64,000 nucleotides of DNA from a virus, in IMG/VR virus record IMGVR_UViG_3300029309_000010, positions 21,137-85,136 of that record; one strand, written 5' to 3'. The position numbers and the translations under genes are program-made. Below are positions 32,377 through 61,500 of the stretch, piece after piece. Within the stretch, counting starts at the first letter, position 1, and every line of letters begins with the position of its first letter. The notes below the pieces were generated by a model that was given only the letters and a program-made list of their open reading frames with translations, made no database searches and was not told where the DNA came from.

Positions 32377-34269
32377 TCAAATCGCAAATGGAATAAATGT
32401 TCCTTGAGGTTTTTCTTCTACCGAGGCGTTTTCTGAATCAAAAAATACTTTCGCATACCAATTGCCTAAAACCAAAGCAGAATAAGAGTCTTTTCTAGCT
32501 CTATTAGGCCCTTTCTGTCTTCTGAGATTTTGAGGCAAGTTAAATGACTGAGACCCCTGTGGGTTAGCTATGACTTCAATGTTGGCACATTCTGACTTTG
32601 TAAGTTCAACAACATACTTTTGATGGTCAAGCAGGTCTATCATCATTGCACCTTTAGAAGCTTTGGGCGCTTTTATGTCCCATTTTAATTTATCAATAGG
32701 TATATTCTTTTTTCTCTGCTCATCAAAGTGAGAGTCTATCGCTCTAGAGGCAAATAATATTCTTCTATGGTCTATCGCTGCTTGTAACATCTCATTAGCG
32801 TTTCTAATCCAGTTGGATGTAGGTTTTCTGAGTATGCAGTAATTTTTTTCTCTTACGTTATATTGATTCTTAAATGAGATAACATCTGAGTTCCAGTTTT
32901 CTGGTTTTTCTAAATCAGCCTCTATAACCCCTATCTTAACACTTTTGGATTTAAATAGTGCGCTTTCGTTACAGGAGTTTATAAACTGGACTCCTCCATT
33001 ATAGTCACCGCATATACCAACAATATTAAAATGTTCTATTAGATATAGGAAATACTCCATGTGGTGCTTTAGAGAAACACCAGCTATAGCATAGCTGTGA
33101 ACTAAGCAGATCTTTTGAGTGTCTCTGTCTAACTTGAAAACGTGCATCGCAAAATGATCAGCACTTGTGTTACCCGCCCAGTTGGGGTCAAACGATAACA
33201 AATATTCATCACTAGGATTACCCACCACCTCCACTGCTGGAAGTTCCCCATCAGGTATCGTGCAAGCCGCCATCTTTGATAATCTAAAGTAGCCATCACT
33301 TTCATCAATAAATTGTGCTCCAAACTCACGCTTGAACTGCATCTCGCTCATTGTAGCCTTCGCCTGTTTAAGCAGGTTTTGATCATACAATCTTGGCGGG
33401 GCGCAGTCGTAACTAAGCTGCATTATTAGTCTATAAGCATCATCTTTAAATGAGTCCTCCTCTTCACCTTCTTTTACAGATAATCCATGAATTAAGTCCT
33501 CATATTTTTTATATAACTTATACATATACTCAAACTTAAATGATGGAGATGAAAGAATTATTAACTTGTTGTTAGGCCAAATATACCGATCATCTTCTGT
33601 CATCTCGCCTTTGTCGATTAATTTGGATTCTAAATTATACAACTCTTCCCTTTCGATAGGATTCTCTACCACACCAAGGAAAGGTATGATAACTTCATTG
33701 AAAATCTTTTCAGGGATTGTCAAAAACTCATCCAAGACAATTCTGTTGAATCGAAATCCACGCAACCTCTCACCGTTAGCTAACGGCAGAGCTATCGCTC
33801 TAGCTTTGCCTAAAGTTAATGTCCATTGGTCAGTTCCCTTCTGTATTTTAAATCCACACTCTTTAATTAGGCTGGCTTCGGGTTTGCTAACAATATCCTC
33901 CATCTTTTGGAAGATTTGCTTTGATTGCCTAAAGCTACCTGCAATAACACCTATATTTGAATTAGGATTGAGTAGACACTCCAGTAGGACATAGATCGCG
34001 GTAGAGAACGTCTTAGACATACCACGCGAGAAAACGAACATGGAATAGTCTGACACCATCATGCCCTTGATAGCCATCGCTTGAAATGGGAATAGCTTAA
34101 CTCCTAAGAATAGCTCAGAAGTAAATGCTATGTTGTTGCGTAAGAATTTGTATAGCAAATACTTCGCTTCTTCTTCTTTGATACCGCCATCAATCTCTTT
34201 TAGAAAATTGTTAAGCTCTTGAGAAGAATGCTCAAGACGATATCCTTGTTTTCCTTTTGTCCAAGACAT
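32377..34269 (-). CDS. terL: Terminase large subunit
   Basis: 'LFPFQ', Walker A SRGMSKT, 'LRGFRFNRIVLDEF' Walker B, 'FKREFGAQF' and C-terminal RKDSYSAL. Confidence 0.9.
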   Translation of the reverse strand: MSWTKGKQGYRLEHSSQELNNFLKEIDGGIKEEEAKYLLYKFLRNNIAFTSELFLGVKLFPFQAMAIKGMMVSDYSMFVFSRGMSKTFSTAIYVLLECLLNPNSNIGVIAGSFRQSKQIFQKMEDIVSKPEASLIKECGFKIQKGTDQWTLTLGKARAIALPLANGERLRGFRFNRIVLDEFLTIPEKIFNEVIIPFLGVVENPIEREELYNLESKLIDKGEMTEDDRYIWPNNKLIILSSPSFKFEYMYKLYKKYEDLIHGLSVKEGEEEDSFKDDAYRLIMQLSYDCAPPRLYDQNLLKQAKATMSEMQFKREFGAQFIDESDGYFRLSKMAACTIPDGELPAVEVVGNPSDEYLLSFDPNWAGNTSADHFAMHVFKLDRDTQKICLVHSYAIAGVSLKHHMEYFLYLIEHFNIVGICGDYNGGVQFINSCNESALFKSKSVKIGVIEADLEKPENWNSDVISFKNQYNVREKNYCILRKPTSNWIRNANEMLQAAIDHRRILFASRAIDSHFDEQRKKNIPIDKLKWDIKAPKASKGAMMIDLLDHQKYVVELTKSECANIEVIANPQGSQSFNLPQNLRRQKGPNRARKDSYSALVLGNWYAKVFFDSENASVEEKPQGTFIPFAI

Positions 34270-35182
34270 TTATTCTATCGTTTATAAAAAATTGTAAATC
34301 AACATCCCATAGCTTATCGCCATGATATAAGATTCGCGGTATAATCTTCTTCGCGCCCGATCTATTGTGCGCAAATATGATTTGTATGTTTTTGGGGTAG
34401 TCTATAATTAAGCTTCTTATGTTGTGCCATAGATAACCAAGATTAGACTTAAACTTGGAAGTCTTATTGTCTGTTTCTAGTTTGTCTATGGTTGTTTCTG
34501 CTACAACAAACATATATGACCCAAATTGAACACAACGATCCATCTCTCTCCTAAACCTCTCGATGTCCTTGCCAAAGGTTTGCCTAAAGTCATCCTGTGA
34601 CTTGCGGTCAACAAATGTTTTTGTATATAGGTCACCTCTGGCTGTATAATCGCCAAAGTCTAACTTATTGGTAACAGAGTCCTTAAACTTGAGGGGAGCC
34701 TTCTCTCTAGTGTCTGTAAACAGAGGAATGGTAGAATAATCATACTTCCAGAAATCTTTTGGTAGATTTGACTTAAAGTAATTCTCTACTCCAATGTCAT
34801 CCAAGAAACTAGAATAAGAACCCCAAATCTTCTTGTAGTCTGCTATGTTAGCCATATTGCACAAATCATAATAAAGGTTCGGGGGCGATACCTTTATTTC
34901 TTTTAGCTCAAACTTTTCTTGCGCTTTCGCTTGTATGTATGTTTTGACATCCTCTCTTGGAGACTCGTCAATCCAGAGCTTAAAATTACGGTGACTATTA
35001 AAGTCATCCCTAAAATACCTATCATAAGATTTGAAAGCAAGTTTTTCACCAGTGTATAAATCCTCCTTGTTATAATGCTTAACATAGTAATCACCTATGG
35101 TAAGCGTGTGAGCTTTTAGGTGCGCGTGGAAACTACGCTTGTTATCAAACTGTTTACCACATTCTAAACAAGTAAACTCCAT
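34232..35182 (-). CDS. C2H2 zinc-finger + ERCC4/XPF-like nuclease
   Basis: N-terminal CLECGKQF...HLKAH; 'DTREK', 'LDFGDY' and 'VDRKS.DDF' form an ERCC4 motif. Confidence 0.75.
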   Translation of the reverse strand: MEFTCLECGKQFDNKRSFHAHLKAHTLTIGDYYVKHYNKEDLYTGEKLAFKSYDRYFRDDFNSHRNFKLWIDESPREDVKTYIQAKAQEKFELKEIKVSPPNLYYDLCNMANIADYKKIWGSYSSFLDDIGVENYFKSNLPKDFWKYDYSTIPLFTDTREKAPLKFKDSVTNKLDFGDYTARGDLYTKTFVDRKSQDDFRQTFGKDIERFRREMDRCVQFGSYMFVVAETTIDKLETDNKTSKFKSNLGYLWHNIRSLIIDYPKNIQIIFAHNRSGAKKIIPRILYHGDKLWDVDLQFFINDRINVLDKRKTRISS

Positions 35183-37961: not shown

Positions 37962-38120
37962 ATATGTTCTTTTTTACACGAATAACTGAATGGGTGCCTA
38001 CTTGTTTATAGAATTCGCCACCCCCCTGCGCGTTGCGCGTCAAGTCAAAAAGTCAATATTCTAAAAAAACCCTACCCTGCCTGCCCTGCAAAAAAAAATC
38101 ACTTTTTATGCGATTAGGGC

Positions 38121-38154
38121 TTGCGCTCAACAGGATCTGTAGTATAATGCTCAC
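38121..38154 (+). promoter_or_regulatory. Early sigma70-type leaderless promoter
   Basis: A-tract, then TTGCGC-16-TATAAT-6-ATG. Confidence 0.8.
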
Positions 38155-38421
38155 ATGACTAAGACAAAGACCACCTACAGAACCACCATCGACTTCCTCA
38201 ACGACTGCGACACAGTGATCTTCGAACACGAAGGTGTCGAGCACGAGGGAGAAGTCACCTTGCACGATCCTGAGATCCACGAAGATGACTGCCCAGAGGG
38301 GCACGTTTACATTCTGTTTCCTGCCATCGCAGGACAAGAAGAGTATCCCTTCGGGATGCCAGTCCACGAGGACGACATAGTCGCTAAGATCGACGAGGAC
38401 GGCGAGAGGATCGAGCTGTAG
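38155..38421 (+). CDS. Small very acidic early protein
   Basis: 88 aa, D/E-rich, with its own promoter. Confidence 0.75.
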   Translation: MTKTKTTYRTTIDFLNDCDTVIFEHEGVEHEGEVTLHDPEIHEDDCPEGHVYILFPAIAGQEEYPFGMPVHEDDIVAKIDEDGERIEL

Positions 38422-38456
38422 GCGCTAAAAAAAAAGAAAAAAAAGCGCGATTCCCC

Positions 38457-38490
38457 TTGCGCCCACGCTAAAATCAGCTATAATATCCCC
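38457..38490 (+). promoter_or_regulatory. Early leaderless promoter
   Basis: A-tract, then TTGCGC-16-TATAAT-6-ATG. Confidence 0.8.
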
Positions 38491-38739
38491 ATGACTCAGG
38501 AAGACATCATGACCCGCCCGACTGACAACTACTACGTGGTGACCGCTGCCTCACGCGCCGACTCTATGAGTCGCGTGCTGGTGGGTGGCACCGTGAACAA
38601 GCCGCTTGCCCTCGCTATCGGAGAGCAGCAGATCGCTGGGATGGTGAGCGGTTTCGCCTCCCGCGCCGAGGCACTTGAGACATACCCCGAGATGCGCGGC
38701 GACCTCATCCCTCGCCCTCTCCCTCTTCCTACCCTGTAA
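38491..38739 (+). CDS. Small early protein (FASRAEA family, paralog of 39303..39503)
   Basis: Own promoter; shared FASRAEA.E.YP motif. Confidence 0.75.
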   Translation: MTQEDIMTRPTDNYYVVTAASRADSMSRVLVGGTVNKPLALAIGEQQIAGMVSGFASRAEALETYPEMRGDLIPRPLPLPTL

Positions 38740-38757
38740 TCACTAACAAGTAATCAA

Positions 38758-39051
38758 ATGAAACTCACATTCCAATACCTCAAACAGTTCACCATCACCG
38801 CCATCGTGTTCACTCAAGCCATCTCCCTCATCATACTTGGGTTGATCTGGTGGTTCAGTGGTTCAGCAGCAGCAGTCAACTACATCAAGACGCAATACGT
38901 GGGCGACTACATGAATCAGGAGGGCCTAGTTCTCTGGCTTACAGTGTTCGCGCTTCTTGGGTCGCTCTTCTGCGCCCCCATCGCTGCCTTTTTTCACTGG
39001 CGCTCTGATCTAGCCCCAATCCCTACCCACAAAAAAAAAGTGCGTGGCTAG
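38758..39051 (+). CDS. Small membrane protein, 2 predicted TM helices
   Basis: Two hydrophobic segments and a basic tail. Confidence 0.65.
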   Translation: MKLTFQYLKQFTITAIVFTQAISLIILGLIWWFSGSAAAVNYIKTQYVGDYMNQEGLVLWLTVFALLGSLFCAPIAAFFHWRSDLAPIPTHKKKVRG

Positions 39052-39155
39052 GTAAAAAAAATCTTGACATCCGTCTGTAGGGTGTCGCTGTCATGGGAGG
39101 CCCCGTTCCCCGCTTGGGGGGCGGGGCTAACCCGTTGCCTCAAGATCACAAGTCA

Positions 39156-39230
39156 TAACTCGTTGACACTCAAGGACTTACGAGGGCGCGGCCCCCGCAA
39201 ACTCGTAACTCGTTGACGCTCAGTCAGTTA
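39156..39230. repeat. 75-bp double-palindrome element, copy 1
   Basis: TAACTCGTTGACACTCAAGGACTTA + 25-bp GC spacer + TAACTCGTTGACGCTCAGTCAGTTA. Confidence 0.95.
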
Positions 39231-39268
39231 CGAGGGTAAAAAAAAGAAATAAAAAACGCATTTAGGGC

Positions 39269-39302
39269 TTGCGGTTAGGCGCAGCTGTGCTAGTATTCCC
39301 CC
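39269..39302 (+). promoter_or_regulatory. Early leaderless promoter
   Basis: A-tract, then TTGCGG-16-TAGTAT-6-ATG with an extended TGn. Confidence 0.8.
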
Positions 39303-39503
39303 ATGACAGTAACTGAAACTACCCCTCGCCCCCGCCCGTTTTTCATGGTGATCCGCCCGAGCCGCGTTCACGCGGGCTTTTGCCTCCTCTGGTGTGGCGA
39401 GGACCGCCATGATGCCCCCTACGGCCACCCGATGGCTTTCGCTTCCCGCGCCGAGGCGGTCGAGGCGTATCCCGATTGGGAAGAGGAGATCATGACCTCC
39501 TAA
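39303..39503 (+). CDS. Small early protein (FASRAEA family)
   Basis: Own promoter; its TAA stop is the first 3 nt of element copy 2. Confidence 0.75.
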   Translation: MTVTETTPRPRPFFMVIRPSRVHAGFCLLWCGEDRHDAPYGHPMAFASRAEAVEAYPDWEEEIMTS

Positions 39504-39575
39504 GTCACTAAGCCTCAATGAGTTATGAGGCGCGGCCCCCCGCCGCCTCGTAACTCGTTGATACTCAAAGAGTTA
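39501..39575. repeat. 75-bp double-palindrome element, copy 2
   Basis: TAAGTCACTAAGCCTCAATGAGTTA + 25 bp + TAACTCGTTGATACTCAAAGAGTTA. Confidence 0.95.
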
Positions 39576-39730
39576 TGACTTAAGTTCTAAAACCGCATCT
39601 TTTACTATAGGCTGTCAAGTCAAATATTTGGCTATTTGCTATTTGTTGTTCTAACCTGCAACCTGAATTAAAAATGATTTTTTAATGAAAAAAATGTTGC
39701 GTAGTCTGCGGTTCTGGCTATACTGTGGAC

Positions 39731-39940
39731 ATGACAGTTGATCAGGCACTAGCCAAACTAATGAAAGCAGAAGCTGCACTTGAGGTTGAGCGCAATAAGC
39801 ACAACGCCCTTCGGATGGACATATCGGGAGTGCAAGGCCAGCTCAGTGTTGTTACTATGTTCTGCAAGGACGAGTCTGCTAAGTCAGACCTAAATGACTC
39901 CATCAAGAAAATCCAAACTGCATTAAACAATGATCAATAG
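39731..39940 (+). CDS. Small coiled-coil early protein
   Basis: Promoter TTGCGT(39697)-16-TATACT-6-ATG fixes the start at 39731. Confidence 0.7.
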   Translation: MTVDQALAKLMKAEAALEVERNKHNALRMDISGVQGQLSVVTMFCKDESAKSDLNDSIKKIQTALNNDQ

Positions 39941-40121
39941 AATAGACCAGATTCTCTCGAATCTCCAGTGCGCCGCCGTCGATGGTGGCTTTAGCCTGTC
40001 CGTCAAAGACGGGGAAATCGTTGCCAAGGATCTGATCTCTGAGCAGCCTCTTGAGTTTATCGTCCGCTTCACTGGGGACGACATCTCTGATGTATCAGTA
40101 AAACCACTAACAAAAAAGTAA
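39930..40121 (+). CDS. Hypothetical protein
   Basis: ORF overlapping the upstream stop. Confidence 0.6.
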   Translation: MINRIDQILSNLQCAAVDGGFSLSVKDGEIVAKDLISEQPLEFIVRFTGDDISDVSVKPLTKK

Positions 40122-40122
40122 C

Positions 40123-40515
40123 ATGGGACTCGACCAATACGCCTACAAAGTAAAGCGCAAGTATGCGCCTACCACTAAGACTTCAACCGTAAGAACTACA
40201 GAGTTCTTTTACTGGCGCAAGCACAACGCCTTGCACGGTTGGATGGAGAATCTATACAACGGAAAAAAACTAGAGGATGGCATCAACATAGACAGCGATG
40301 ACTTCAATGGTGTCGCTGTTAAGCTGGAGGAGAAAGACTTGGATAAGCTGGAGCAGGATGTCATGACCTTCAACTTGCCTCAGACCGCAGGTTTCTTTTT
40401 CGGTCGTGACAGTGTGGGTGATGAATACCAGAAAGAGCAGACTCTTGAGTTTCTCAAGAAAGCTAGGAAAGCACTTGCCGAGGGTTTCGAGGTTGAGTAT
40501 AACAGTTGGTGGTAA
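40123..40515 (+). CDS. Conserved phage protein (MGLDQY...YWRKHN...GFFFG...SWW family)
   Basis: Motif pattern recognisable from many large phages; function unknown. Confidence 0.75.
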   Translation: MGLDQYAYKVKRKYAPTTKTSTVRTTEFFYWRKHNALHGWMENLYNGKKLEDGINIDSDDFNGVAVKLEEKDLDKLEQDVMTFNLPQTAGFFFGRDSVGDEYQKEQTLEFLKKARKALAEGFEVEYNSWW

Positions 40516-40691
40516 TGGAATCATTCAAAGTATACTTAAAAGAAGTCCACTGGCAGGAGGTGCATGTTCACGCTACCAGTAGACAAGATGCAGTAAAACG
40601 TGCGCGTGATGGGGAGGGTGACTATGTTGGTGCTACAACATACGACCACACAATCGAAACAATAAGTGAACACAGGGTAGAAGAACTGTAG
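40515..40691 (+). CDS. Hypothetical protein
   Basis: TAATG overlap; 'V.A.S..DA...A' small-protein pattern. Confidence 0.6.
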   Translation: MESFKVYLKEVHWQEVHVHATSRQDAVKRARDGEGDYVGATTYDHTIETISEHRVEEL

Positions 40692-40718
40692 AAACTCTCA
40701 ACATCACTTTGACAAAAG

Positions 40719-40973
40719 ATGGAAAACCAATACAGTAGTATAACAAAGCAGGTAATCAGGTTCGGCCCAACCGACGAATTCCCCTTCCTCTTAAACTTAA
40801 CTATAACTTCTAATGACAAGCGCACTTGTTCTTTTACTGTTCATACTTTGCAGTCCGATGATACGTGGTCTGCTGCACTTCCCCAATGGCTCTTCACTGA
40901 GGCAAAGCAGAAAGAAATCAGGCTTCTGCTTAATCAGCTATGTCAGAAACATGCTCTGAAAAAGTTCTCGTAA
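40719..40973 (+). CDS. Hypothetical protein
   Basis: Its TAA stop is the start of element copy 3. Confidence 0.55.
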   Translation: MENQYSSITKQVIRFGPTDEFPFLLNLTITSNDKRTCSFTVHTLQSDDTWSAALPQWLFTEAKQKEIRLLLNQLCQKHALKKFS

Positions 40974-41045
40974 CTCACTGATACTTAGTGGGTTACGAGG
41001 CGGGGGCGGCGCCGCCCTCCTAACTCGCTGATACTCAACGAGTTA
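40971..41045. repeat. 75-bp double-palindrome element, copy 3
   Basis: TAACTCACTGATACTTAGTGGGTTA + 25 bp + TAACTCGCTGATACTCAACGAGTTA. Confidence 0.95.
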
Positions 41046-41108
41046 TGAAAGTGAAAAAAAAAGAAAGAAAACGCTTGCACGGTTAGCTGACTGTGTTACT
41101 TTCCCCAC

Positions 41109-41333
41109 ATGACAGATCTACATGACTTCATCACCGTCCGCCCCGAAGAACTCATCGACTCCCTCGCGGACGGCCCCCGCGAAGGGCAGTTCAACCCGTC
41201 ACCCGAGGAGGTGCAGGAGTTGTTCGCGCAGATTCACGCGGAGGAGCACCCCACCCAGTTCTCGACTGACGATGACGAGCGCGACGAGATACCGATGCTC
41301 AACACGGAACTTGCAAAAAGATTCGTTCCGTAA
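41109..41333 (+). CDS. Small acidic early protein
   Basis: Promoter TTGCAC(41075)-16-TACTTT-6-ATG; its stop is the start of element copy 4. Confidence 0.75.
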   Translation: MTDLHDFITVRPEELIDSLADGPREGQFNPSPEEVQELFAQIHAEEHPTQFSTDDDERDEIPMLNTELAKRFVP

Positions 41334-41405
41334 GTGATTAATACTCAAGGGGTTACGAGCCGCGCCCCGCCGCCCCCTCGTAACTCCTTGATACTCAAGG
41401 GGTTA
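41331..41405. repeat. 75-bp double-palindrome element, copy 4
   Basis: TAAGTGATTAATACTCAAGGGGTTA + 25 bp + TAACTCCTTGATACTCAAGGGGTTA. Confidence 0.95.
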
Positions 41406-41579
41406 CGACTGAATAAAAAATAATAAAAAAGGTTTGCAGATCAGGCGTCTTGTGATAGTCTATTTGCAAGTTAGCTATTTGCTATTAGACCATATATCCT
41501 GTAACCTATGATCAAAAAAATGTTCAGATTCAGCAGAAAACCTCTTGCACTCACTGCAAAACCTGTTAAAATCACACCC

Positions 41580-41873
41580 ATGCAACCAACCAATCTTACT
41601 AACGTAATCGTGGATGCTAACCAGCAGTTACCAAGCAATCCAGTTCACCTTGCCTCTGAGCTTACAGGCAAGACCGTTTCCTACACTAACAAAGAGAAAT
41701 CTTCTGTTGTGTCTGGCAAAACCAGAGTCTTCAAGATCAAAGCAGTTGAGGACATCACCGTCTCCAAAACCACGGGCAACGAGTATGTAACCGTGCAGGT
41801 CCAAGACTTGGACGATGGAGGCACCGTCAAGCATCGGAATCTCCTTGTGCAAGGAATCGACGTTGTTGTATAA
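41580..41873 (+). CDS. Hypothetical early protein
   Basis: Promoter TTGCAC(41545)-16-TAAAAT-7-ATG fixes the start at MQPTN. Confidence 0.7.
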   Translation: MQPTNLTNVIVDANQQLPSNPVHLASELTGKTVSYTNKEKSSVVSGKTRVFKIKAVEDITVSKTTGNEYVTVQVQDLDDGGTVKHRNLLVQGIDVVV

Positions 41874-41890
41874 TTCTACCAAACAAAACT

Positions 41891-42115
41891 ATGGCATCTA
41901 AAACCAAAACAGAAACCGTTAGGATCGAAGTGAGAAACTCCGATCAAGCCGCCCTTGTAAGCTATGGCCTCGGCCTAGTCCATCAGGAACTCTCTACCAA
42001 GCTAGTGGATGTGGCAGATGATAAGCTCGACACCTTTGTTGGGAACATCAAGTATCTTCGCAAGAATGCTAATCACTTAAACGAAAAGTTTTCTCTCCCC
42101 GTGAACGATCAATAA
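41891..42115 (+). CDS. Hypothetical protein
   Basis: 74-aa ORF, co-oriented with its neighbours. Confidence 0.65.
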   Translation: MASKTKTETVRIEVRNSDQAALVSYGLGLVHQELSTKLVDVADDKLDTFVGNIKYLRKNANHLNEKFSLPVNDQ

Positions 42116-42282
42116 TTTCTAGAAACCTCCCCTCCTGTTCTCTCTGATGGGTAGGTGGTTGTAAAACACAGTGAGGCTTTTAGCGGTGGGCGTATAACCG
42201 TAGGCTTAACGTAAGAGTAGCCGCCCCTCTCCCACTTTTCTAGACAGTGGGTGAGGGAACCACTTTCTGCATGGTGCTAACT

Positions 42283-42325
42283 GCCCCGTCCCCTATGTTT
42301 GCTCATGTTAGGGGGCGGGGTTTTT
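42283..42325 (+). terminator. Terminator hairpin (GCCCCGTCCCC family)
   Basis: GCCCCGTCCCCT...AGGGGGCGGGG followed by TTTTT; similar hairpins at ~39100-39127 and 43324-43366. Confidence 0.7.
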
Positions 42326-42398
42326 GGGAGTGTAGCTCAATGGTTAGAGCACACGACTCATAATCGTTAGGTTGCGGGTTCGAGTCCCGCCGCTCCCA
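42326..42398 (+). tRNA. tRNA with CAT anticodon, most likely tRNA-Ile2 (lysidine, reads AUA); CCA not encoded
   Basis: Cloverleaf GGGAGTG/CGCTCCC, D arm GCTC/GAGC, anticodon arm CACGA-CTCATAA-TCGTT (CGACTCATAATCG as in Ile2 tRNAs), T arm GCGGG-TTCGAGT-CCCGC. Confidence 0.9.
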
Positions 42399-42473
42399 TA
42401 ACTCACTAAGCCTCAAGGAGTTACGAGTCGCGCCCCGCCCCGCCCTCGTAACTCGTTGATACTCAACGACTTA
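42399..42473. repeat. 75-bp double-palindrome element, copy 5
   Basis: TAACTCACTAAGCCTCAAGGAGTTA + 25 bp + TAACTCGTTGATACTCAACGACTTA; begins right after the tRNA discriminator base. Confidence 0.95.
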
Positions 42474-42544
42474 CGACTGAAAAAAAAAGAAAGAAAAAGG
42501 CAAAATAGGGTTGCATCAAATCTCTCATGTGATACTCTCCTCCC

Positions 42545-43303
42545 ATGCTGATACTAGCTAAGAACAAAGTTGATACCGAGCAGCTCGCAGAAGTTACCAC
42601 CCCGTCTGCAACGGACACTCACACTCCAATCCCTCACGCGCTCCTCGCGGATCGCACTCGCACCGTCATTGATGCGGCTGGTTTGGAGATCGTCGAAGAG
42701 GAACACGCGATTGCGCGTGGTGGTCTTCGCTACTTTGGTGGCTTCGCCCTCAAGGGTGAGGCCATCGACGGAGATGACCGCAAGCTGGTGCTTGGTCTCC
42801 GCAACGCGCACGACAAGTCTTTTGCGGCTTCCGTGTGCATCGGCAACCAGATGATGGTCTGCGAAAATCTTTGCTTCTCTTCAGATGTGAAGCTCGCTCG
42901 CCGTCACACCGTCAACATCCTTCGGGATCTGAACACGGTGCTTTCGTCTGCCGTTAGTCGCGTGACTTCGCACTGGGTTGACATGGGCAATCGGATTGCT
43001 TCCTACAAGGAGAGTGAAATCTCCAAGGAGGCAGCTTCCGACTTGGTTGTCGATCTCGCTGAGATGGGCGCGTTTCCTGCGCGTTCCGTCTACAAGGCGG
43101 TGCAGGAGTTCCGCAACCCTCGCCATGAGGAGTTCAAGGGCGGCACTCTCTGGACTCTCTACAACGGGGTCACCGAGCACCTCAAGGGCGGGGACTTGAC
43201 CAAGCTCCCCCAACGCACGATGACAACGCAAGCTGTCTTTGACAGGCTCGCGGGTCACAGGCCCAAGATCGTCGAGGCCGAACAGGTCGCCATGCCGAGC
43301 TAA
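42545..43303 (+). CDS. DUF932-family protein
   Basis: 'LGLRNAHDKS', 'VCENL', 'RRHT' and 'TLWTLYNGVTE'. Promoter TTGCAT(42511)-16-TACTCT-6-ATG. Confidence 0.8.
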   Translation: MLILAKNKVDTEQLAEVTTPSATDTHTPIPHALLADRTRTVIDAAGLEIVEEEHAIARGGLRYFGGFALKGEAIDGDDRKLVLGLRNAHDKSFAASVCIGNQMMVCENLCFSSDVKLARRHTVNILRDLNTVLSSAVSRVTSHWVDMGNRIASYKESEISKEAASDLVVDLAEMGAFPARSVYKAVQEFRNPRHEEFKGGTLWTLYNGVTEHLKGGDLTKLPQRTMTTQAVFDRLAGHRPKIVEAEQVAMPS

Positions 43304-43323
43304 TTTGTGTGTGGTAACGCAAA

Positions 43324-43366
43324 GCCCCGTCCCCCCTTTCTTGTTTCGGGGGGGCGGGGTTTTTTA
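43324..43366 (+). terminator. Rho-independent terminator
   Basis: GCCCCGTCCCCC...GGGGGGCGGGG followed by a T-run. Confidence 0.8.
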
Positions 43367-43387
43367 ATGGTTTAAATACGCAAGTCA

Positions 43388-43462
43388 TAACTCCTTGAGT
43401 ATCAAGGAGTTACGAGGGCGCGGCCCCCGCCGCCTCGTAACCCATTGAGAATCAATAGGTTA
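43388..43462. repeat. 75-bp double-palindrome element, copy 6
   Basis: TAACTCCTTGAGTATCAAGGAGTTA (perfect 11-bp arms) + 25 bp + TAACCCATTGAGAATCAATAGGTTA. Confidence 0.95.
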
Positions 43463-43522
43463 TGAATGAATTTTTAATAATAAAAAAGTTGACCAGAGAG
43501 CGTCTTGTGATATTGTCGCGCC

Positions 43523-43828
43523 ATGTTAGGAACCATAACAACCAAATCGTTTACGATTAACTATTACCTCTATAAAGGGGAAGGACAGGACAGCGAATGG
43601 CTTTCCACTATTCTAGTCCAAAACAATTCAGGCCAGCCCATGCACACTAGCGATAGAGCAAAACTCTATGCAAAACAATATAATAGTCTTGATGGCTTGG
43701 TCCTTTGGGATATAGAGCCAGCTATGGAAGAGAACGGTGTTGATGTTATCACCATTAATAGTGGATCTGGGGTAATAAAAAAGGTTGCCAACGAGCGCGA
43801 AGCTAGACAAACTTTCGGTAGTAAGTAA
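43523..43828 (+). CDS. Hypothetical early protein
   Basis: Promoter TTGACC(43489)-16-TATTGT-6-ATG. Confidence 0.7.
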   Translation: MLGTITTKSFTINYYLYKGEGQDSEWLSTILVQNNSGQPMHTSDRAKLYAKQYNSLDGLVLWDIEPAMEENGVDVITINSGSGVIKKVANEREARQTFGSK

Positions 43829-44511
43829 TGAAACTACTTAACGGAGGTAACTATAAAACATCAAAGGGAGAATCGTTTGGTTGGAAAACCTACGGCCTCC
43901 ACCTTTCACCATTCAACATATCAGGAAACAATGTTTGCCCTAATGCTTCTACTGGTTGCGCTGCTGCTTGTCTTAATACTGCTGGCAGGGGAATCATGCG
44001 AAACGTCCAAGAAGCCCGAATCAGAAAAACACAGTTCTTTTTTGATGATAGGGAGGGATTCTTACGCCAGCTATTCAAAGAAATCAAAAGCTCGATTAAA
44101 AGCGCGACGAGAAAACAACTAAACTCTTGCTTTAGGTTAAACCTGACAAGTGACATTGCGTGGGAGAGATATATCATCCCTGCTTTCAAGGATCATCAAT
44201 TCTATGACTACACGAAAAGCAAAACAAGAATGCGTAGGTTTCTCCAAGGAAAGCTACCAGAAAACTACCACCTCACCTTCTCTCGATCCGAGGATACCAA
44301 GGACTCAGAAGTTAAAGAGTTTTGCAGCGCGGGTGGCAATGTTGCGGTCGTTTTTAGAGGACACCTTCCCAGTGAATGGAAAGGGATCAAAGTGATAGAC
44401 GGAGACGTTTCAGACTTGCGCTTTCAAGACGAACAAGGTGTAATAGTCGGGCTGGTCGCCAAGGGTCTCGGTAAAAAAGATGAAACAGGATTTGTAGTAG
44501 AACCAAAGTAA
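43828..44511 (+). CDS. GP88-like protein (Cys-cluster, radical-SAM-like)
   Basis: 'VCPNASTGCAAACLNTAGRG', 'RLNLTSDI', 'FYDYTK', 'NYHLTFS' and 'DGDVSDLRF'. Confidence 0.75.
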   Translation: MKLLNGGNYKTSKGESFGWKTYGLHLSPFNISGNNVCPNASTGCAAACLNTAGRGIMRNVQEARIRKTQFFFDDREGFLRQLFKEIKSSIKSATRKQLNSCFRLNLTSDIAWERYIIPAFKDHQFYDYTKSKTRMRRFLQGKLPENYHLTFSRSEDTKDSEVKEFCSAGGNVAVVFRGHLPSEWKGIKVIDGDVSDLRFQDEQGVIVGLVAKGLGKKDETGFVVEPK

Positions 44512-44717
44512 TGAGTAAAAACACACAAAAACAAATAGTTAGCTTTGAGAGTCTTATGGTCTCGCTTCTAGCGGAGTATACTGAAGAGCTTTCCAAAGAT
44601 ACCCCAAGCCTTACGGCTTCAATGGAAATAGGTCACAAGATGATTGAAATAGGAAAGATGCTAGACACCTCAGAAAAAGGCGTTAAGAAAATCTATAAGA
44701 TGCTGTCAAATGGATGA
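44511..44717 (+). CDS. Hypothetical protein
   Basis: TAATG-coupled ORF. Confidence 0.55.
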   Translation: MSKNTQKQIVSFESLMVSLLAEYTEELSKDTPSLTASMEIGHKMIEIGKMLDTSEKGVKKIYKMLSNG

Positions 44718-44786
44718 ATGGAGCAGAACTGTGGATTGCAATTCTAGTTTTACTAACAACAATAATTCTTTTAATAGGCTGTAGCA

Positions 44787-45035
44787 ATGGAAGAAACAAA
44801 GAAAGGCAGACCCGTTGGAACGGGAGGAATCTACAAACAGAGAGGCGCTTACGCGACAAGGCACAAAGGTCAAGAATCTATACAAGAGAAACATATAAAT
44901 TACATGCGTGGCCTGTCAACAGTGGTGGGCGAGGCTTGCGACAGATACTTTGAGAGAAAAGGAATGCCGAAAGTCCTAAGCTGGTCAGCGAAAGCAAAAC
45001 AAGAAAGAGAAGAAAGAAAAAAGAAATCAGCATGA
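44787..45035 (+). CDS. Hypothetical basic protein
   Basis: ORF with KGRP motif, coupled to the next gene. Confidence 0.5.
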   Translation: MEETKKGRPVGTGGIYKQRGAYATRHKGQESIQEKHINYMRGLSTVVGEACDRYFERKGMPKVLSWSAKAKQEREERKKKSA

Positions 45036-45331
45036 GCAAAACAAAATTCTTTAAGGCTTCTCGTTCTGGCAGGAAGATGATTCCTTGCACAGAAGCAGAG
45101 AACGAAGAGCATCGTGCGCGTTGTGCGGTGCGAGGGCACTTCTATAAAACGATTGAAATCCTCTGTGACATGGGATACAAAGAAATCGCTTTTGAGGTTA
45201 GGGCAGCAGCAGATACAAAAACTAGATACTGGTCTAGTGAGCGTAAGAGCAAACCCAAACCACCGAAAGCGGAGCTGTCCGAGAGCGGCTCTTGGGTTGA
45301 ATACTGCAAGATAAGAGGCTTGAAATTTTAA
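45032..45331 (+). CDS. Hypothetical basic protein
   Basis: ATGA-coupled ORF. Confidence 0.55.
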   Translation: MSKTKFFKASRSGRKMIPCTEAENEEHRARCAVRGHFYKTIEILCDMGYKEIAFEVRAAADTKTRYWSSERKSKPKPPKAELSESGSWVEYCKIRGLKF

Positions 45332-45412
45332 AGACAAATCGAGCGGCATGGTGTGCGGGGAGATCCCGCAACACGGGTTTCTACGTCTTTGCCTGTCATG
45401 AAACACCGCTCG

Positions 45413-45487
45413 TAAGTCCCTCGTAACCAATGGGTTACGAGGGGCCGCCCCCTCCAAACTCGTAACTCCTTAAGTATCAGTGAGTTA
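45413..45487. repeat. 75-bp double-palindrome element, copy 7 (closes the module)
   Basis: TAAGTCCCTCGTAACCAATGGGTTA + 25 bp + TAACTCCTTAAGTATCAGTGAGTTA. Confidence 0.9.
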
Positions 45488-45507
45488 CGATTTATAGATG
45501 GAAGTCT

Positions 45508-45534
45508 AAAAAAAAGCCGCACGATGTGCGGCTT
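45508..45534 (-). terminator. Terminator for minus-strand transcripts
   Basis: A8 followed by AAGCCGCAC/TGCGGCTT hairpin. Confidence 0.6.
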
Positions 45535-45644
45535 GGGTTAATTGTTTATTTGCTTATTAAGTGTTTATCCTGTAACCTAGACTATACTGTTAATATAATA
45601 GTTATTACTATAAGGAATACTAGCCACCACTGAAAAGCAGACAT

Positions 45645-45923
45645 TTATTGTTTTATTAAGTGGGCTATATGCTCCTCAATATAATCACTAAACTCTTTTA
45701 TTGCTTTAGTATGCTTGTATCTCTCATTCACTGCCGCAGCATAGTGATGATCGCCACCCAGAGGGTAGTAGTCTCTAGCATGAAACTCACACTGTTTAAC
45801 TGTGTCTTGTAAGACATGTATTGCATTGAGTATATCTGTATAGCCATGCAGTAACATCTTTTTGCCTGTGCCATTCATATGGACTACGGGCAGTGGGTAT
45901 GAAGTTTGTTCTTGAACACTCAT
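45645..45923 (-). CDS. Hypothetical phage protein
   Basis: 92-aa ORF ('VHMNGTG', 'FHARDYYP') with an upstream TTGACT. Confidence 0.65.
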   Translation of the reverse strand: MSVQEQTSYPLPVVHMNGTGKKMLLHGYTDILNAIHVLQDTVKQCEFHARDYYPLGGDHHYAAAVNERYKHTKAIKEFSDYIEEHIAHLIKQ

Positions 45924-46504
45924 TACCGCTACACACTACTACCACCTACGGTGGTAGTCAAGAGAAAAAATGAATTAAAATACCACGGAAACTAACGTGC
46001 AAAAAAGTGTGGCTGCAATAAACACTAGAGATATAATAGCTTCTACTCTGCTCATATAATTATTAAGGGTTTCTGCGGTAAACTGAGGTTACTTATTTGT
46101 CGATTATTTTGTTATTCTTCGACAGGTTTTATATATATGTATACTATATACACATATACTTATTAAGCCGATCTGCCATAAACTGGGCACTATAATTTAA
46201 ATTAATTAATAATAGTCTGCTTAAATAGCGCAAAAGCCCTTTTTATTTGGTCGAATTAGGTTAAATTGGGCCTCTCTCTCGTATCGCAAGAATATATTTA
46301 TTTATTTAGGGCGAAGGAGACTATCCTAATTATTTGGGTTTTTTATTAAGAAACTAAGAAAGAGACTTGTTTTATTGTATTTACTATTATATATTACCCT
46401 ATGTATTCTTATATAGCTCTATAGTATACTCTATTCTTTTTAATTATATTTTATTATTATTTAATAGTTTATATTAATTTAAATGTATTTTATTACAAAT
46501 TATA

Positions 46505-55515: not shown

Positions 55516-58500
55516 TTAGCCTATCCTCCAAATAGATCCGTCAGAGTAGACGGGTATAGCGTTGTAACCACCAGCGTAAGAAGTTACGCCAGCTCCTACT
55601 GTAGTAGAACCAACTCCTACTGTAGAGTTATTTACAAATGCTCTTTGTCCAGCAGGAGAAGCTGATGGTAGAGATCCTATTGCATAAACAGCGCTTTTAA
55701 TTGTGCCATTTACATCTAGTTTTGTTTGTGGACTAGCTGTTCCTATACCAACATTTTGATTAGCATCAATTCTAATAGCCTCTACAATAGATCCACCAGC
55801 TTGTCTAGTCTCAAAAGACATGCTTGAGTTTGGTTTACCATGATTAGAAATTTTGAAATTATTAGTGCTTGCTCCTTGGTATAATAAAGAAACACCATTA
55901 TCAATTGGCGCACTAGTGGGACCAGTTCCAATTTTAAATTGAACATCAGCATCATTAGTGGTAGAGTTAAGTATGACACTCATATTGCCAGCATCTTGCA
56001 TATGTAAGATGCCCTCTGGCGCAGTCGTTCCTATACCAACAGCTAACGACTTTACGAAAACCTCTGGAGTAGTGTTATTTGTAGAACCTGCCCATATCCC
56101 CATACCACCAACACTGCCATTTCCGTAACCACCTACGGCACCAAAGTAACCGTCAGAAGTTCCTTTAAATGATATTGCTTGAGAGCTTCCAGCAACAGTG
56201 TGATTTTGAGTGTGACCATCAATAATCAAAGGCTCATGAGCAGTGCCATTTACAGAGTCATTTAGTATATGAAGTTTCTCTTCTGGCGCAGTTGTTCCTA
56301 TACCTACTTTATTTCCAACCAAACTTAAAATATCAGACCCTCCTGCACGGAGATCCATTCTATCAACTGCATGATAATATCTTACATAGCCTTGGTTAGC
56401 TGAAGCTGTATCGCCAAAAGCTAAATATTGGAAACTGCTTGCTGGACTTGATAATTGAATACCGACATTGCCATTATTTTCTATTATTAAATCATCATGA
56501 CTTGCATTTGTGGCTATGGTTCCACCTGCATCTGCTGTGTAAATATGAGTAGTTCCAAGGGGATCAGTTGTTCCTATACCGACATCACCTGCATGTGTAA
56601 ATCGAGCTAAGTCTACTCCATTATTATTCTTAATGGTTATGTCACCATTAGCAGTAGCAGCGGTTACTTGATTCACAATAGCAGCGTTAGCTACCAAGCT
56701 TGTGGATGTCTTTATAATTCCCGCAACCTCTAATGGGACAGATGGATTAGTCGTTCCTATACCTACACTATTAGAGGCAACAATATTTTTTGCTTCAAAC
56801 TTTTGATTTTGATTGACAACTGTATGAATAACAGTTGAAGTAGAAGTTGATGTAGCTAAAGATGATGGTAAACTTACGGGATGGTCAGTGCTTCTAGCCG
56901 TGACTGAAACATCTACAATTGGTCCCGAACTAAATTCTAATTTTATTTCAACTGTTCCATCAGCTCTTACTCTTACAGCTGTTATATTCGCGTAGCCGCT
57001 ATTTGCGCTTACTATAGAACTAAGTAAAGTTATGTATCCAAATTCATGACCAGAAAAACCTTCGCTAACAATAAAGTCCATAGAACTATGTGCGTAAGTG
57101 TTGACACTGAAATGAACAGGACCAGTATGTTGATCGGTAATAGTTCCTATTGGGAAGAAATCTTCATCGCTTCCACTTAATGAAGTATATCTTTTTGTTC
57201 GAATTTGATCAGAGGATATTAGTCCATCAGCTTTAATATCTCCTCCTACATCAAGCTCACAAGTTGGAACTGTCTTTCTTATTCCAACATATGCAGTGGT
57301 GTGGGCTACGGAGATACCGACAAGATTTGCGTGGGGATCTTCTACTCCCCAATAACTAGAGGGGATATTTGAATTTGTCGAGCTACCGCCGCCTATACCA
57401 GCTCGAAATGAATAACTATCGCCTCTTCTGAAGCGAATAGTGCCGCCATAGCTGGCGTTACCCTTTAGGTCTAAAACTTCTCCGTTCTGATCACTATTAT
57501 CAAATACTGATAATTTTCTGACTGGATCAGTTGTCCCTATACCGATTTTACCATCACTTTCAATTCGTATAGCTTCTGTTTTCGCGCCATTAAATTCAGT
57601 TACTCCGATAGCACCATAAGGAACTGTTCCTGTTCTGCCGCCTTCAAAGTAGATGCCTCTGTCGTTTGAGGTTCCTATTCTTACAAGCGCACCAGCACCA
57701 TTAGCGTCACTTGTTCCTTCAAACCTCGCTACTTCACATACTGCACTACCAGCATGTCTTACATGAAATCTTGTTGGCGTTGTATCAAAAGCTAAAGGCA
57801 CTTGTGTCCCTACGCCTACATGGCCGTTTTCTGTTATGGCAATGAATCCATTTTCAATTAATGAGCTATTTAGATAATGACCAAACTTAGCGACATTATT
57901 ACTTCTATCGAATCTTAAACCAGCATACCTAAAGTTACTATCAGTCGCTTGGACCCCAGCAAGAGAGTATCTATCACTTCCATCTGTGCTAAATGACAGA
58001 ATGTTTCCTGTTACATGAAGAAATGCATTACTAGCAGGACTGTGTGTTCCTATACCTACTTTACCTGCTTGGGTAATAATAAATTCTGCACTAGTATCTA
58101 TACCATAATTAACATTACTAATACCAAAATACTCTCCATTAGAATTATCCATCCCTAAAGACCAAGCATTTCCTCCCGCTAATAATCTTAACCCCGCATC
58201 ACCAGCACCATCTTGTTGGATAGTTAGTTGCGGAAGAGTGTCTGTCCCATTAGAATATAAATTTAATTTAGTATCAGGACTGGTTGTTCCTATACCGACC
58301 TTGCCGTCTCCTTTGAACACTATTTTTTGAGACCCCCCATCGGCTGTCGTGAAGAAATTGAAATCCCCAGCCGCTTTAAAGTTCATTCCAAGTCCCTGAC
58401 CTTGAATGGTATTGTTTACACTCCCACCTAATGTTACTTTACCCTCTAATCTAGAGGTTCCTGCATTATGAAGTTTATAAGCTGGATTATTTGTTCCTAT

Positions 58501-61500
58501 GCCTACATTACCACCCGCTTCAATTACCATCTGAGTAGAATTATTTTCACGGAAAAATATACTTTTACTTGATGACCTATTAATATAAAGATTTTTATCA
58601 GCAGAGGAACTAATGAAGTTATAGTCATTTTGACTAGTGCTGCCATTCAATGTGATAGCATTATAACTTGGATATATCCCACTACCCATTAATATAGACC
58701 CCTTGCCTTCTGGGCCGTATACCTCTAGAGAAGCACTTGGGTCTGTTACCCCTATACCAACTCTAGGACACTCTGAACTATAACGAAGCATTAAGCTCGG
58801 TTTATAATCATATAAGCTAAATGCTACTGCATTAGCTGTGCTACCACCCTGACGGAAACGGAATGAGTTGGTTACACCATTATAAGTTCCGTATATAAGA
58901 GATAATGCTCTTGAACCTGCATTAGATGTAGCTCCATAAAATATGGTTGATCCATCAAGTTGAGTGTTGCCATGAACATGAAGTCTTTGACTTGGAACAG
59001 TCGTTCCTATACCTACGTTACCAGCAGAGCTTATAACCAAATGGTCAGTCATGGCCTCATGACCAACTTGATTCCTGCCTATCGCAAATTGAGTCGCATT
59101 ATTATCATGTATGCCAACACCCCAGTAATTACTGCTATCATTAGAACCATTAAATACGATTCTGGGGACAACATTTCCACCGACAGTAATACCCCCATAT
59201 GTTGTCGTGGGTTTTACGTCTAATATTGCTGATGGACTATCTGTTCCTATACCAACATTACCAGCAGAGTTGATTTGCATCCTCTCTGTGCCATTAGTAG
59301 TGGCATCATTGGCGGCAGTTTTAAATACAATTTGTGTAGCTGCATTACCCGCACTTGACCCACCGCCTATGTTAACTACATTGCTAGTGCCATTAGAATC
59401 ACCTACCATTAAGATAACAGGCTGCTCTGCATTATGGTAATGAGGCATCCCAATACGCGTAAATTTACGAGTATCATTAGTAAGTGATTGTGCGGTCACA
59501 TCAGCACCTGCGACTATAGTAAATCCACCATTGTCTTGGAGAACTTGTAATTTTCCATCATCTGGACTATTTGTTCCTATACCAAAGTTGCCAGCAGAAA
59601 TGTGGTTGTTTGTTCCATCACTATAGAAAGCTATTTTTTCAACATTACCATCATACATGTGGAATCTAGCTCCATCAGTTGCCTTTTCTGCTATTTTGAC
59701 AATAGGATTAGTATTGCTGTTTCCCTGTATTGTTAAAGCAGAGTCATTTGAGCTAATGCTGTTTGATTTTATAGTTAAAGGCGATGTCGGACCAGTCGTT
59801 CCTATACCTACATTTCCAGCAGCATTAACAACTAATTTTTCTTGAGATGCTGTGGTTTTACTAATCGCTGAACCACCGTTTAGAACAATTGAAAATCTAT
59901 TGGCATCTCCACCGAGATTATCCCCATCATACATTAAAGCACAATGAGAATTTGAATTGTCTGTTTCAGAGAATAAGATTGTAGGTTTGCCATCACCAGC
60001 TGTAGCTTGATCGCTAGTAATTCTTAAATCACCACCAAAAACATGTAATGGGTTCAATGGATTGTTTGTTCCTATACCTACATTACCATCTCCCCTCACC
60101 CTCATGAGGCTTGACCCAGCCTTACTGTTTACTTCCAATGCCACATCTGAGCTATTACTACCTGCTTCAATTTTTACTCCAAAATTATCACCAGCAGTAG
60201 CCTCATCATTTTCAAACAATGCAACGTAGGTGTCCGCGCTAACACCATCAGCGGCTTTCACATGTAGTAGGTTTTGTGGATCATTGTTCGATATACCAAC
60301 ACGACCAACCGAATCAATTCGCATTCTCTCTACACCCGCTGTCAAAAATCCAAGTTCATTATTGCCGAGCCTAGACATGCCCATATTGACATTATCATAG
60401 AAACCATAATCAGCCTCACTAGAAGATGCACTACTAACAACAATTCTACCTTTGTTAGTAGAATTTCCGACAACTAATGTTGTATCTGCTTCACCAGTAA
60501 TATGGAAAGAAGCTCCTCCACCTTGTGATTGAGAATCTGCGTGTCTGTAAGTTATGTTACCATTTTGAAGAGAGGAGGAATTGTCGTTAAATTGTATAGT
60601 TGCTCCCTTGCCATTATTAGTGTTGTGAATCCTTAATACAGGAGCATCATCTGTCGCAGAACCTCTTACGTCTAATGGTGCATTAGGACTAGCTGTGTTA
60701 ATACCTACTTTTTGAGCATTTCCATCTCCTCCAAAATAAATTCTATTACTAGATGAAATGAACTTCAGATCTAGCGCACCATTATCGCTAGATATTTTCA
60801 TAGCAGTCCTGCTATTCGCTGTCGCGGGACCAATACGGAAATTACCGTGTGTCGTAGTATTTATACCAAATAAATTACTACCTACAGATCCTTTAATTTC
60901 AAGGGGCACGTTAGGACTAGTTGTTCCTATACCGACGAAGCTGCCGTTGCCATCGCCTTGCCCTTTGATGTTTATTCCCACGCCTCCCGCTGTTCCTAAC
61001 GCCAAAAGACTGGTGAAAGCGCGAGTGTTCGTGATTCTAACATCATCAAAACTAATCCGTTCAAATTCCAAGGCACGGGAAGGTCCATGCATGAATCCCA
61101 CACTGTCTCCGTTCGCCGCCAAATTAACCGTCAGATTGTCAAGAGGGTTGGCTGTTCCTATGCCTACTTTACCTGCGGAGGTAATAATCGCCGCTTGATT
61201 GCCATTATTAGGTCTAAAATTTATGTCTTTACCAGCAGCTGCATCAAGAAACAAATGACTAGTTATATTTTTTATTACAAAATTACCGTCTAAGAAGAGG
61301 TCTTGTTTTGTTCTTATCCTGCCATTTACATCTAATGTAAAAGTTGGATTAGTCATGTTAATGCCGACTCTATCAGTCGAAGCATCAACATATAAGGTAT
61401 CCGTATCGAAATAGCTGTCACCATTTGGATCTATCTTTAAAGTCTTCGCTCCTCCGTCACCTGCAACGGTGCCATATTCATAACCACATATTTCATGATA

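Follow-up and report, generated by a model that had tools for sequence, protein, structure and literature searches.

A conserved two-box palindromic element at the boundaries of exchanged early gene cassettes in a lineage of uncultured marine tailed phages

What is the role of a palindromic repeat that recurs between the small early genes of an uncultured phage? The question is raised by a 64,000-nucleotide stretch of viral DNA, referred to here as the window (bases 21137-85136 of the 85,136-bp IMG/VR record IMGVR_UViG_3300029309_000010), in which seven copies of a 75-bp element, each made up of two 25-bp boxes with a 25-bp GC-rich spacer between them, lie within an island of early genes. The best explanation is that the element constitutes a conserved boundary module of the hyperplastic early region of a single, uncultured lineage of marine tailed phages. 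Regarding its mode of action, we give about an even chance to a module that operates at the DNA level by binding a protein, likely a host factor. The element would work as double-stranded DNA, its two dyad-symmetric recognition boxes being set 50 bp apart by the spacer. It would be placed past the end of a cassette, often just past that cassette's own terminator, and be followed in helical register by phased A-tracts and a leaderless early promoter of the sigma-70 type. The boxes would most likely be occupied by a sequence-specific DNA-binding or architectural protein, for which a host factor is the strongest candidate; this protein would establish or insulate the promoter downstream. Because the element is the only sequence common to otherwise unrelated cassettes, these would be inserted, deleted or replaced by general homologous recombination between copies, whether in one genome or between co-infecting relatives.

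Architecture of the element and its relation to early promoters

All seven copies listed by the original prediction are present at its positions, in the same orientation (Table 1), and their boxes start exactly 50 bp apart in every case. A profile built from them recovered the same seven copies only in the whole record (E 1e-22 to 1e-25), and a box weight matrix yielded 13 boxes of at least 18 bits genome-wide, every one inside an element. The inverted centres reported for copies 6 and 7 were located in box 1 of the former and box 2 of the latter. While the core layout is real, calling the element exact was an overstatement: box 1 of copy 7 is degenerate, with a shorter palindrome in a different register, and boxes across the family average ~1.9 non-Watson-Crick positions per 11-bp arm pair. 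Likewise, the claim that the spacer never drifts in length applies to the seven window copies but not to the family, in which the spacing is exactly 50 bp in 171 of ~230 scorable elements and 49-52 bp in 37 more.

Scanning related contigs revealed a large family. The degenerate box pattern matched at least 116 IMG/VR stretches, with 11 to 14 matches per related phage record and none for the reversed pattern, and the element profile found at least 306 copies in the matched stretches, ~1 kb apart. At least 292 full copies with usable flanks, the window included, are distributed over more than 100 marine IMG/VR contigs. All 49 loci that reach the left border of the island have the same arm, which encodes the family 19 nuclease, the family 4 protein, a sigma factor, a zinc-ribbon protein and PhoH, and therefore belong to one phage lineage. 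In G001, a CheckV-complete relative of 147.7 kb, the copies are gathered in two short clusters, and in another relative (G002) in a single one. No match was obtained among GenBank phages (megablast of the island, blastn of one element); in Rfam only the tRNA passed, the best match on an element having an E value of 0.48. A literature search on motif words returned only unrelated primers, and the paper on cyanosiphovirus P-SS2 describes no such repeats.

The island contains eight stereotyped promoters, in which a TTGC-type -35 sequence is followed after 16-17 nt by TAnnnT and after a further 6-7 nt by ATG. A -10 sequence located only 6-7 nt before the start codon implies that the early mRNAs are leaderless. 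The same layout was found at 149 element flanks in relatives. An outward leaderless promoter lies within 125 nt on one side in 148 of 280 elements and on both sides in none, and the element is therefore polar in its context; divergent contexts suggested by crude open reading frame (ORF) calls were overridden by this promoter-based test. In the window, A-tracts and promoters follow copies 1, 3, 4, 5 and 6, as had been predicted, and four of the seven copies have a promoter 26-38 nt downstream. The centre of the promoter-proximal box is also oriented, reading TAC or TAA in 56 cases and GTA in 5. Moreover, distances from the element edge to the -35 sequence peak at 26-28, 38-39, 48-49, 71-72, 82-83 and 92-93 nt, with a periodicity of ~10.9 bp (Rayleigh nR2 17.8, 95 non-redundant junctions), and the gap is filled with phased A-tracts. 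This phasing is best read as DNA-level architecture.

The original prediction had also observed that box 1 begins on the TAA stop codon of the upstream gene in copies 2, 3 and 4 and immediately after the tRNA in copy 5, and both observations were reproduced. The box contains stop codons in two frames (TAA at positions 1-3, TGA at positions 9-11). The overlap is incidental, since just ~10% of element-facing ORFs stop on the element. A box abuts the 3' end of a tRNA in the window (42325-42399, without encoded CCA) and in one relative (L113:8466-8496, after the encoded CCA).

Double-stranded DNA site versus RNA hairpin

Each 25-bp box is dyad-symmetric, with the half-site consensus TAASTCVYTGA. 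Sixteen columns are invariant, and the variable ones are restricted to S at position 4, V at position 7 and Y at position 8. Family-wide, Watson-Crick pairs at 4/22, 7/19 and 8/18 are as frequent as they would be if the paired positions varied independently, and 30-50% of the cells at 4/22 and 7/19 are unpaired. Perfect boxes show no excess over shuffled half-sites (9 versus 13.4, and 33 versus 26.4). When G-U is counted, 86.6% of cells are paired, versus 85.7 ± 0.3% after shuffling, a very slight excess such as relatedness by itself can yield.

These results bear on the possibility that the element acts in RNA, in the manner of the promoter-early stem-loops (PeSLs) of T4-like myoviruses (Arbiol 2010, PMC2839356; Comeau 2014, PMC4122927), its transcribed hairpins terminating the upstream mRNA, directing its processing by RNase III or RNase E, or protecting its 3' end. 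Every copy lies at the 3' end of a plus-strand unit, and RNA folding of the window copies gives -27 to -44 kcal/mol, with z from -2.1 to -8.6; the folds compete, two outer hairpins alternating with one central hairpin. PeSL stem-loops have been reported as terminators (PMC4122927), and one orthologous solitary box in Fibrobacter lies between the stop codon of a gene and its terminator. Besides the small excess in the boxes there is a clearer one in the spacer, where dyad covariation is modest (62.4% paired versus 56.8 ± 0.9% shuffled, with 40-49% in slid registers). The latter could reflect a weak cruciform or hairpin constraint, or else recombination that homogenises palindromes.

Against an RNA function stand, in addition to the near-independence of the half-sites, the types of mismatch. 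With elements oriented by their promoter, transition mismatches in box 1 are A.C in 64 cases and G.U in 36, whereas those in box 2 are G.U in 50 and A.C in 24. The variation lies in the two outer half-sites and is mirror-symmetric about the element centre, the inner half-sites being nearer to the consensus. This pattern is not strand-consistent, and therefore neither RNA strand folds both boxes cleanly. Long-range arm pairs, both outer and middle, are depleted in Watson-Crick pairs. Furthermore, the combination that defines an intrinsic terminator, a GC-rich hairpin with a direct U-tract, was not found: a T-rich tail follows none of 96 elements, A-tracts standing there instead. A canonical terminator in the sense direction precedes box 1 in 28 of the 96 (29%), usually 22-38 nt upstream. 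In the window such a terminator precedes copy 6, and also copy 5 with the tRNA gene in between, while a terminator-like hairpin precedes copy 7; termination is thus supplied apart from the element. The primary sequence is conserved far beyond the needs of a hairpin, and helical phasing to a promoter is a property of DNA. Taken together, the sequences indicate that the element is probably not an RNA hairpin, and we assign a small but appreciable chance to an RNA-level function.

Cassette exchange at the element edges

To the right of the conserved arm, relatives carry differing sets and orders of small genes with elements between them. Recurring cassette families (2, 6, which is DUF932, 7, which is GP88, 8, 14, 15, 20, 27-29 and others) appear in new combinations, and the island is a mosaic of high-GC and low-GC cassettes. 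Across ~100 loci there are 519 ORF families and hundreds of element-delimited cassettes, mostly ORFans. Ends of nucleotide homology concentrate at the far edge of the element, at 14-20 per nt over a background of ~1-5. In one relative (L017), blocks shared with the window (39156-39578 and 40971-41288) are 85-91% identical, while the 1.39 kb between edges 39578 and 40971 is swapped for 643 unrelated bases, and box 1 of copy 1 is the exact end point of a 429-bp insertion (38727-39155). In Logan contigs of other marine runs, the sequence skips from 41293 to 42443, 1129 nt are inserted at 42399-42413 (copy 5), an opposite-strand joint links 42476 and 43414, and loose ends occur at 39240, 39575, 41048, 41413 and 42473-42476; metagenome contigs can break or be mis-joined at repeats, and these joints serve as weak, supporting evidence only. 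Cassettes almost always hold one orientation. The prediction that the copies are junctions of shuffled cassettes was thus borne out, gene content between them varying among relatives with breakpoints at element edges, and the comparisons support the view that the copies are points of cassette exchange between related phages. Gene family 10 (window 45645-45923, minus strand) lies on the strand opposite to GP88 in the window and L073 and on the same strand in L060, L061, L072 and L086, which suggests a rare inversion bounded by an element.

Neither a tyrosine recombinase (PF00589) nor a serine recombinase, a resolvase or a Y1 transposase (RAYT, PF01797) was found in G000, G001 (100% complete) or G002, so that the absence of a visible recombinase, first remarked on in the window, extends to the whole record and to its CheckV-complete relative. 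Because no integrase, resolvase or Y1 transposase was found even in this complete 148-kb genome, passive homologous recombination appears the likeliest mode of shuffling, by analogy with PeSLs, for which homologous recombination has been proposed as the mechanism (PMC4122927).

An improbable alternative is that the element serves, in a res-like or integron-like manner, as a dedicated site for site-specific recombination and is cut by an enzyme not recognised as such, either the ERCC4 nuclease encoded at 34232-35182 or a host recombinase. This gene, on the minus strand, encodes a fusion of a C2H2 zinc finger and an ERCC4-type nuclease (family 19) and is conserved in the arm beside the island in many relatives. 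In its favour, the breakpoints coincide exactly with element edges, joints of the skip, insertion, go-back and opposite-strand kinds are seen in contigs at elements, and the layout of two subsites 50 bp apart resembles the subsite spacing of resolvase res sites. Exact-edge breakpoints are, however, equally expected from homologous crossovers inside a shared element, and the contig joints carry the weakness already mentioned. The 3-bp centre is too short for the core of a tyrosine recombinase site; cassettes rarely change orientation; and neither a tyrosine or serine recombinase nor a HUH transposase was found in the complete relative.

The analogy with integron attC arrays drawn by the original prediction fails on every defining feature. 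In both systems imperfect palindromes bound an array of co-oriented small cassettes whose content varies among relatives. However, IntI was not found here, each phage cassette has its own promoter whereas integron cassettes are promoterless, each junction has two boxes, and the element conserves its sequence rather than, as attC does, its folded structure. An active integron-like system is therefore unlikely.

A selfish, non-autonomous mobile repeat spreading through intergenic DNA, akin to repetitive extragenic palindromic (REP) sequences or REPINs, to Correia elements or to miniature inverted-repeat transposable elements (MITEs), would account for a multi-copy, intergenic and palindromic element and for the patchy occurrence of related boxes in bacteria. 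We consider it very improbable. None of 18 indels of 55-130 nt between relatives contained an element, whereas a MITE would be expected to show element-only insertions with a target-site duplication, and no Y1/RAYT transposase was found; the copies keep to one region and one orientation, compensatory long-range pairing is lacking, with the depletion described above, and bacterial boxes are solitary with unrelated flanks. The element does resemble the bacterial interspersed mosaic elements (BIMEs) of E. coli, including the RIP type (REP palindromes plus an IHF site), and REPINs in pairing extragenic palindromes through a linker between transcription units, and shares with BIME/RIP a link to an IHF-type consensus. 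REPs, in contrast, number hundreds per chromosome and come with RAYT transposases, whereas copies of the element are few and no RAYT was found; REPIN arms co-vary, whereas the element lacks long-range covariation, is limited to the phage early region and is polar with respect to promoters.

PeSLs, with which the original prediction had already compared the element, are its closest analogue. Both are small conserved intergenic modules that combine a palindrome with a sigma-70-type early promoter, both concentrate in hyperplastic regions rich in small ORFans, and both flank indels or replacements between close relatives, here the replacement between 39578 and 40971 and the 429-bp insertion ending at 39155; for neither is a dedicated recombinase known. 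They differ in that the present lineage bears a tape-measure gene, lacks the T4 core and is not a T4-like myovirus. A PeSL stem is short, G/C-rich and variable in sequence, whereas the element combines, over 75 bp, two boxes of invariant primary sequence whose half-sites vary independently; no U-tract belongs to it, a separate terminator often stands ahead of it, it is in helical register with the promoter, and its box also occurs on its own in bacterial genomes. The nearest known thing to the element is thus a PeSL, of which it would be a structurally distinct and much more conserved variant in another phage lineage.

Table 1. Positions of the element copies, promoters and terminators of the early island (window coordinates)
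Feature	Position	Strand	Remarks
Hypervariable early island	38000..46000	+	~50% GC vs ~36% for the genome; flanked by minus-strand late modules
Element copy 1	39156..39230	+	box 1, GC-rich spacer, box 2; promoter 39269-39305 begins 38 nt downstream
Element copy 2	39501..39575	+	TAA is stop of gene 39303-39503; right edge 39578 is replacement breakpoint vs L017
Element copy 3	40971..41045	+	TAA is stop of gene 40719-40973; left edge 40971 is second L017 breakpoint; promoter 41075-41111 sits 29 nt downstream
Element copy 4	41331..41405	+	TAA is stop of gene 41109-41333; promoter-like TTTGCA at 41433
Element copy 5	42399..42473	+	abuts 3' end of tRNA-Met (42325-42398); promoter 42511-42547 37 nt downstream
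Element copy 6	43388..43462	+	box 1 centre inverted; ~20 nt past canonical terminator starting at 43325; promoter 43489-43525 sits 26 nt downstream
Element copy 7	45413..45487	+	box 1 degenerate, box 2 centre inverted; no promoter after; closes island between converging genes, then minus-strand terminator 45514-45534
Sigma-70-type leaderless early promoter	38121-38157		
Sigma-70-type leaderless early promoter	38457-38493		
Sigma-70-type leaderless early promoter	39269-39305	+	
Sigma-70-type leaderless early promoter	39697-39733		
Sigma-70-type leaderless early promoter	41075-41111		
Sigma-70-type leaderless early promoter	41545-41582		
Sigma-70-type leaderless early promoter	42511-42547		
Sigma-70-type leaderless early promoter	43489-43525		
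Canonical intrinsic terminator	42284..42319	+	upstream of tRNA and copy 5
Canonical intrinsic terminator	43325-43365		upstream of copy 6

Candidate binders, solitary bacterial boxes and significance

Upstream binding of integration host factor (IHF) activates phage early promoters such as lambda pL and Mu Pe. As at these promoters, a consensus-matching site lies here 70-100 bp upstream of a strong early promoter, beside A/T-rich UP-like DNA. Half-site and box centre together read YAANNNNYTGATW; reverse-complemented, this is the IHF consensus WATCARNNNNTTR (PMC9452768, PMC5224486). Perfect matches to this consensus number 26 genome-wide, 8 of which fall within the 14 boxes; they occur in 73% of promoter-proximal boxes and 49% of distal ones. 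The sites differ from those at lambda pL and Mu Pe in being dyad-symmetric and doubled, with extra conserved T5 and C6, and their binding is putative; furthermore, the phyla that carry solitary boxes are not those in which IHF has been characterised. Canonical IHF is doubtful as the binder, because T5 and C6 are more than 90% conserved at positions that belong to the unconstrained NNNN of the IHF consensus, and ~25% of box centres break that consensus.

The box also occurs outside phages. A scan of genome collections found full elements on one contig only, a mis-binned phage of this lineage, and solitary boxes mainly in Fibrobacter, Lentisphaeria and Bacteroidota metagenome-assembled genomes (MAGs), including MAGs labelled Fibrobacter succinogenes. 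A restriction by phylum was confirmed by sampling: of the Fibrobacterota genomes 16 of 61 carried solitary boxes, of the Verrucomicrobiota genomes 10 of 121, and of a further 120 from Pseudomonadota none, with 0 throughout for the reversed-pattern control. The bacterial boxes (loci L146-L187, e.g. L162-L167 of genome G112, L151, L152 and L171) keep the half-site grammar of the phage, are mostly intergenic and have unrelated flanks. They are solitary within ±1.5 kb, on which ground paired inverted sites of the phase-variation type were rejected. Some Fibrobacter species have the same flanking sequence around a box, which suggests a shared locus. Genes next to the boxes are of diverse kinds, among which surface-glycan, adhesin and restriction genes are frequent and glycosyltransferase, argS, metK and purL genes also occur; no coherent regulon was found around the boxes. 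We read the box as a DNA-binding specificity of some Fibrobacterota, Bacteroidota and Verrucomicrobiota that the phage would have doubled and multiplied. Separately, a box in a bacterial genome (L171:1410-1525) lies 8 nt after a tRNA CCA, and the solitary boxes of the Verrucomicrobiota genome G112 at L163, L164, L166 and L167 lie 20-40 nt from the palindrome TACAGCATT-N3/4-AATGCTGTA.

Alternatively, the boxes could be operators of a regulator encoded by the phage itself, an early or middle protein that binds the copies cooperatively and shuts off or times early transcription. This would draw on the same DNA-level evidence, would suit the restriction of the copies to the early island, and could involve one of the conserved unannotated genes beside it (sigma factor, zinc-ribbon protein, a 353-aa protein). 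We consider it unlikely: no helix-turn-helix or other DNA-binding domain was found in the proteins of the island or the arm, the boxes lie 26 to more than 90 nt upstream of the -35 sequence rather than over the promoter, and a phage-specific repressor does not explain solitary boxes in bacterial chromosomes.

A dedicated protein-bound architecture, as originally proposed, is hence plausible but unproven, since near-independent half-sites, promoter polarity, helical phasing and solitary bacterial boxes all fit it. Several observations weigh against a DNA-level module bound by a host factor. The spacer covariation and the small excess in the boxes may betray some selection for a hairpin or cruciform. 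In addition to the departures of T5, C6 and the box centres from the IHF consensus, no binding protein was found: Pfam and PHROGs searches with the island and arm proteins gave no candidate, and no HU/IHF gene was found in the phage records. The bacterial boxes are patchy, with 16 in one Saprospiraceae MAG and none in 40 genomes of its order, and some lie inside ORFs, which is not what a universal host factor predicts. The 50-bp spacing does not correspond to a whole number of helical turns, and the phasing to the promoter could in part represent inherited integer numbers of ~11-bp A-tract units. Finally, promoters 38121 and 38457 have no element upstream and copy 7 has no promoter, so that the element is not an obligatory part of the promoter.

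Further sequences accompany the elements. The motif TGTCAAG/TGTCAAC occurs ~35-45 nt downstream of some of them (L113:8570-8620, L102:3451-3500, window 39600-39612), in a ~45-nt module ahead of an A-tract promoter, and its reverse complement resembles a -35 hexamer. A second conserved motif, TATTTGCT..CCTGYAACCT, is found at 39633-39665, 41476-41508 and 45547-45579, after elements 2, 4 and 7; following copy 4 it lies downstream of a promoter-like site and could thus represent a leader or small RNA. In different cassettes, the small, GC-rich early genes 38491-38739 and 39303-39503 are paralogues, their 3' ends being 82% identical over 39 nt.

The record carries genes for a tape-measure protein, large terminase, PhoH, a sigma factor and a giant fibre-like ORF, and is ~63% complete (CheckV). 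Its terminase is only ~25% identical to those of Bacillus siphoviruses, no near relatives are found in GenBank, and the sequencing runs containing the stretch are marine metagenomes. The 2758-aa ORF at 55516-63792 (minus strand) has no Pfam domain; part of it resembles Bdellovibrio fibre adhesins (8ond, E 1.4e-9), and it is probably a giant tail fibre. An N4-type hairpin promoter was rejected, this ORF matching fibre proteins and not a virion RNA polymerase. Clues to the host are one phage contig binned in a Verrucomicrobiales MAG and weak protein-atlas neighbours (0.87); a lineage-specific phage protein was not found in 401 Verrucomicrobiota genomes. Coverage by one metatranscriptome was confined to the tRNA region and a short part of gene 42545-43303.

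The element provides a searchable marker for the accessory early genes of an abundant uncultured marine phage lineage, and the genes that it delimits are likely to serve host takeover and anti-defence. It is a long shot that the double palindrome is the recognition site of an unrecognised recombination or architectural machine that actively mobilises promoter-plus-gene cassettes; candidates would be the zinc-finger/ERCC4 nuclease or a factor specific to Fibrobacterota, Bacteroidota and Verrucomicrobiota that also marks solitary sites near variable surface and defence genes in bacteria. If true, lytic marine phages would possess an integron-like cassette system that does without an integrase. 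On the reading preferred here, that of a protein-bound boundary module shuffled by general recombination, the idea behind PeSLs, namely that conserved regulatory junctions drive modular shuffling, would extend beyond T4-like phages to a more elaborate, operator-like junction. The helical phasing hints that leaderless early promoters have an architectural element upstream, and the solitary boxes of bacteria suggest that phage and bacteria share an uncharacterised DNA-binding specificity, which could also reveal the host.

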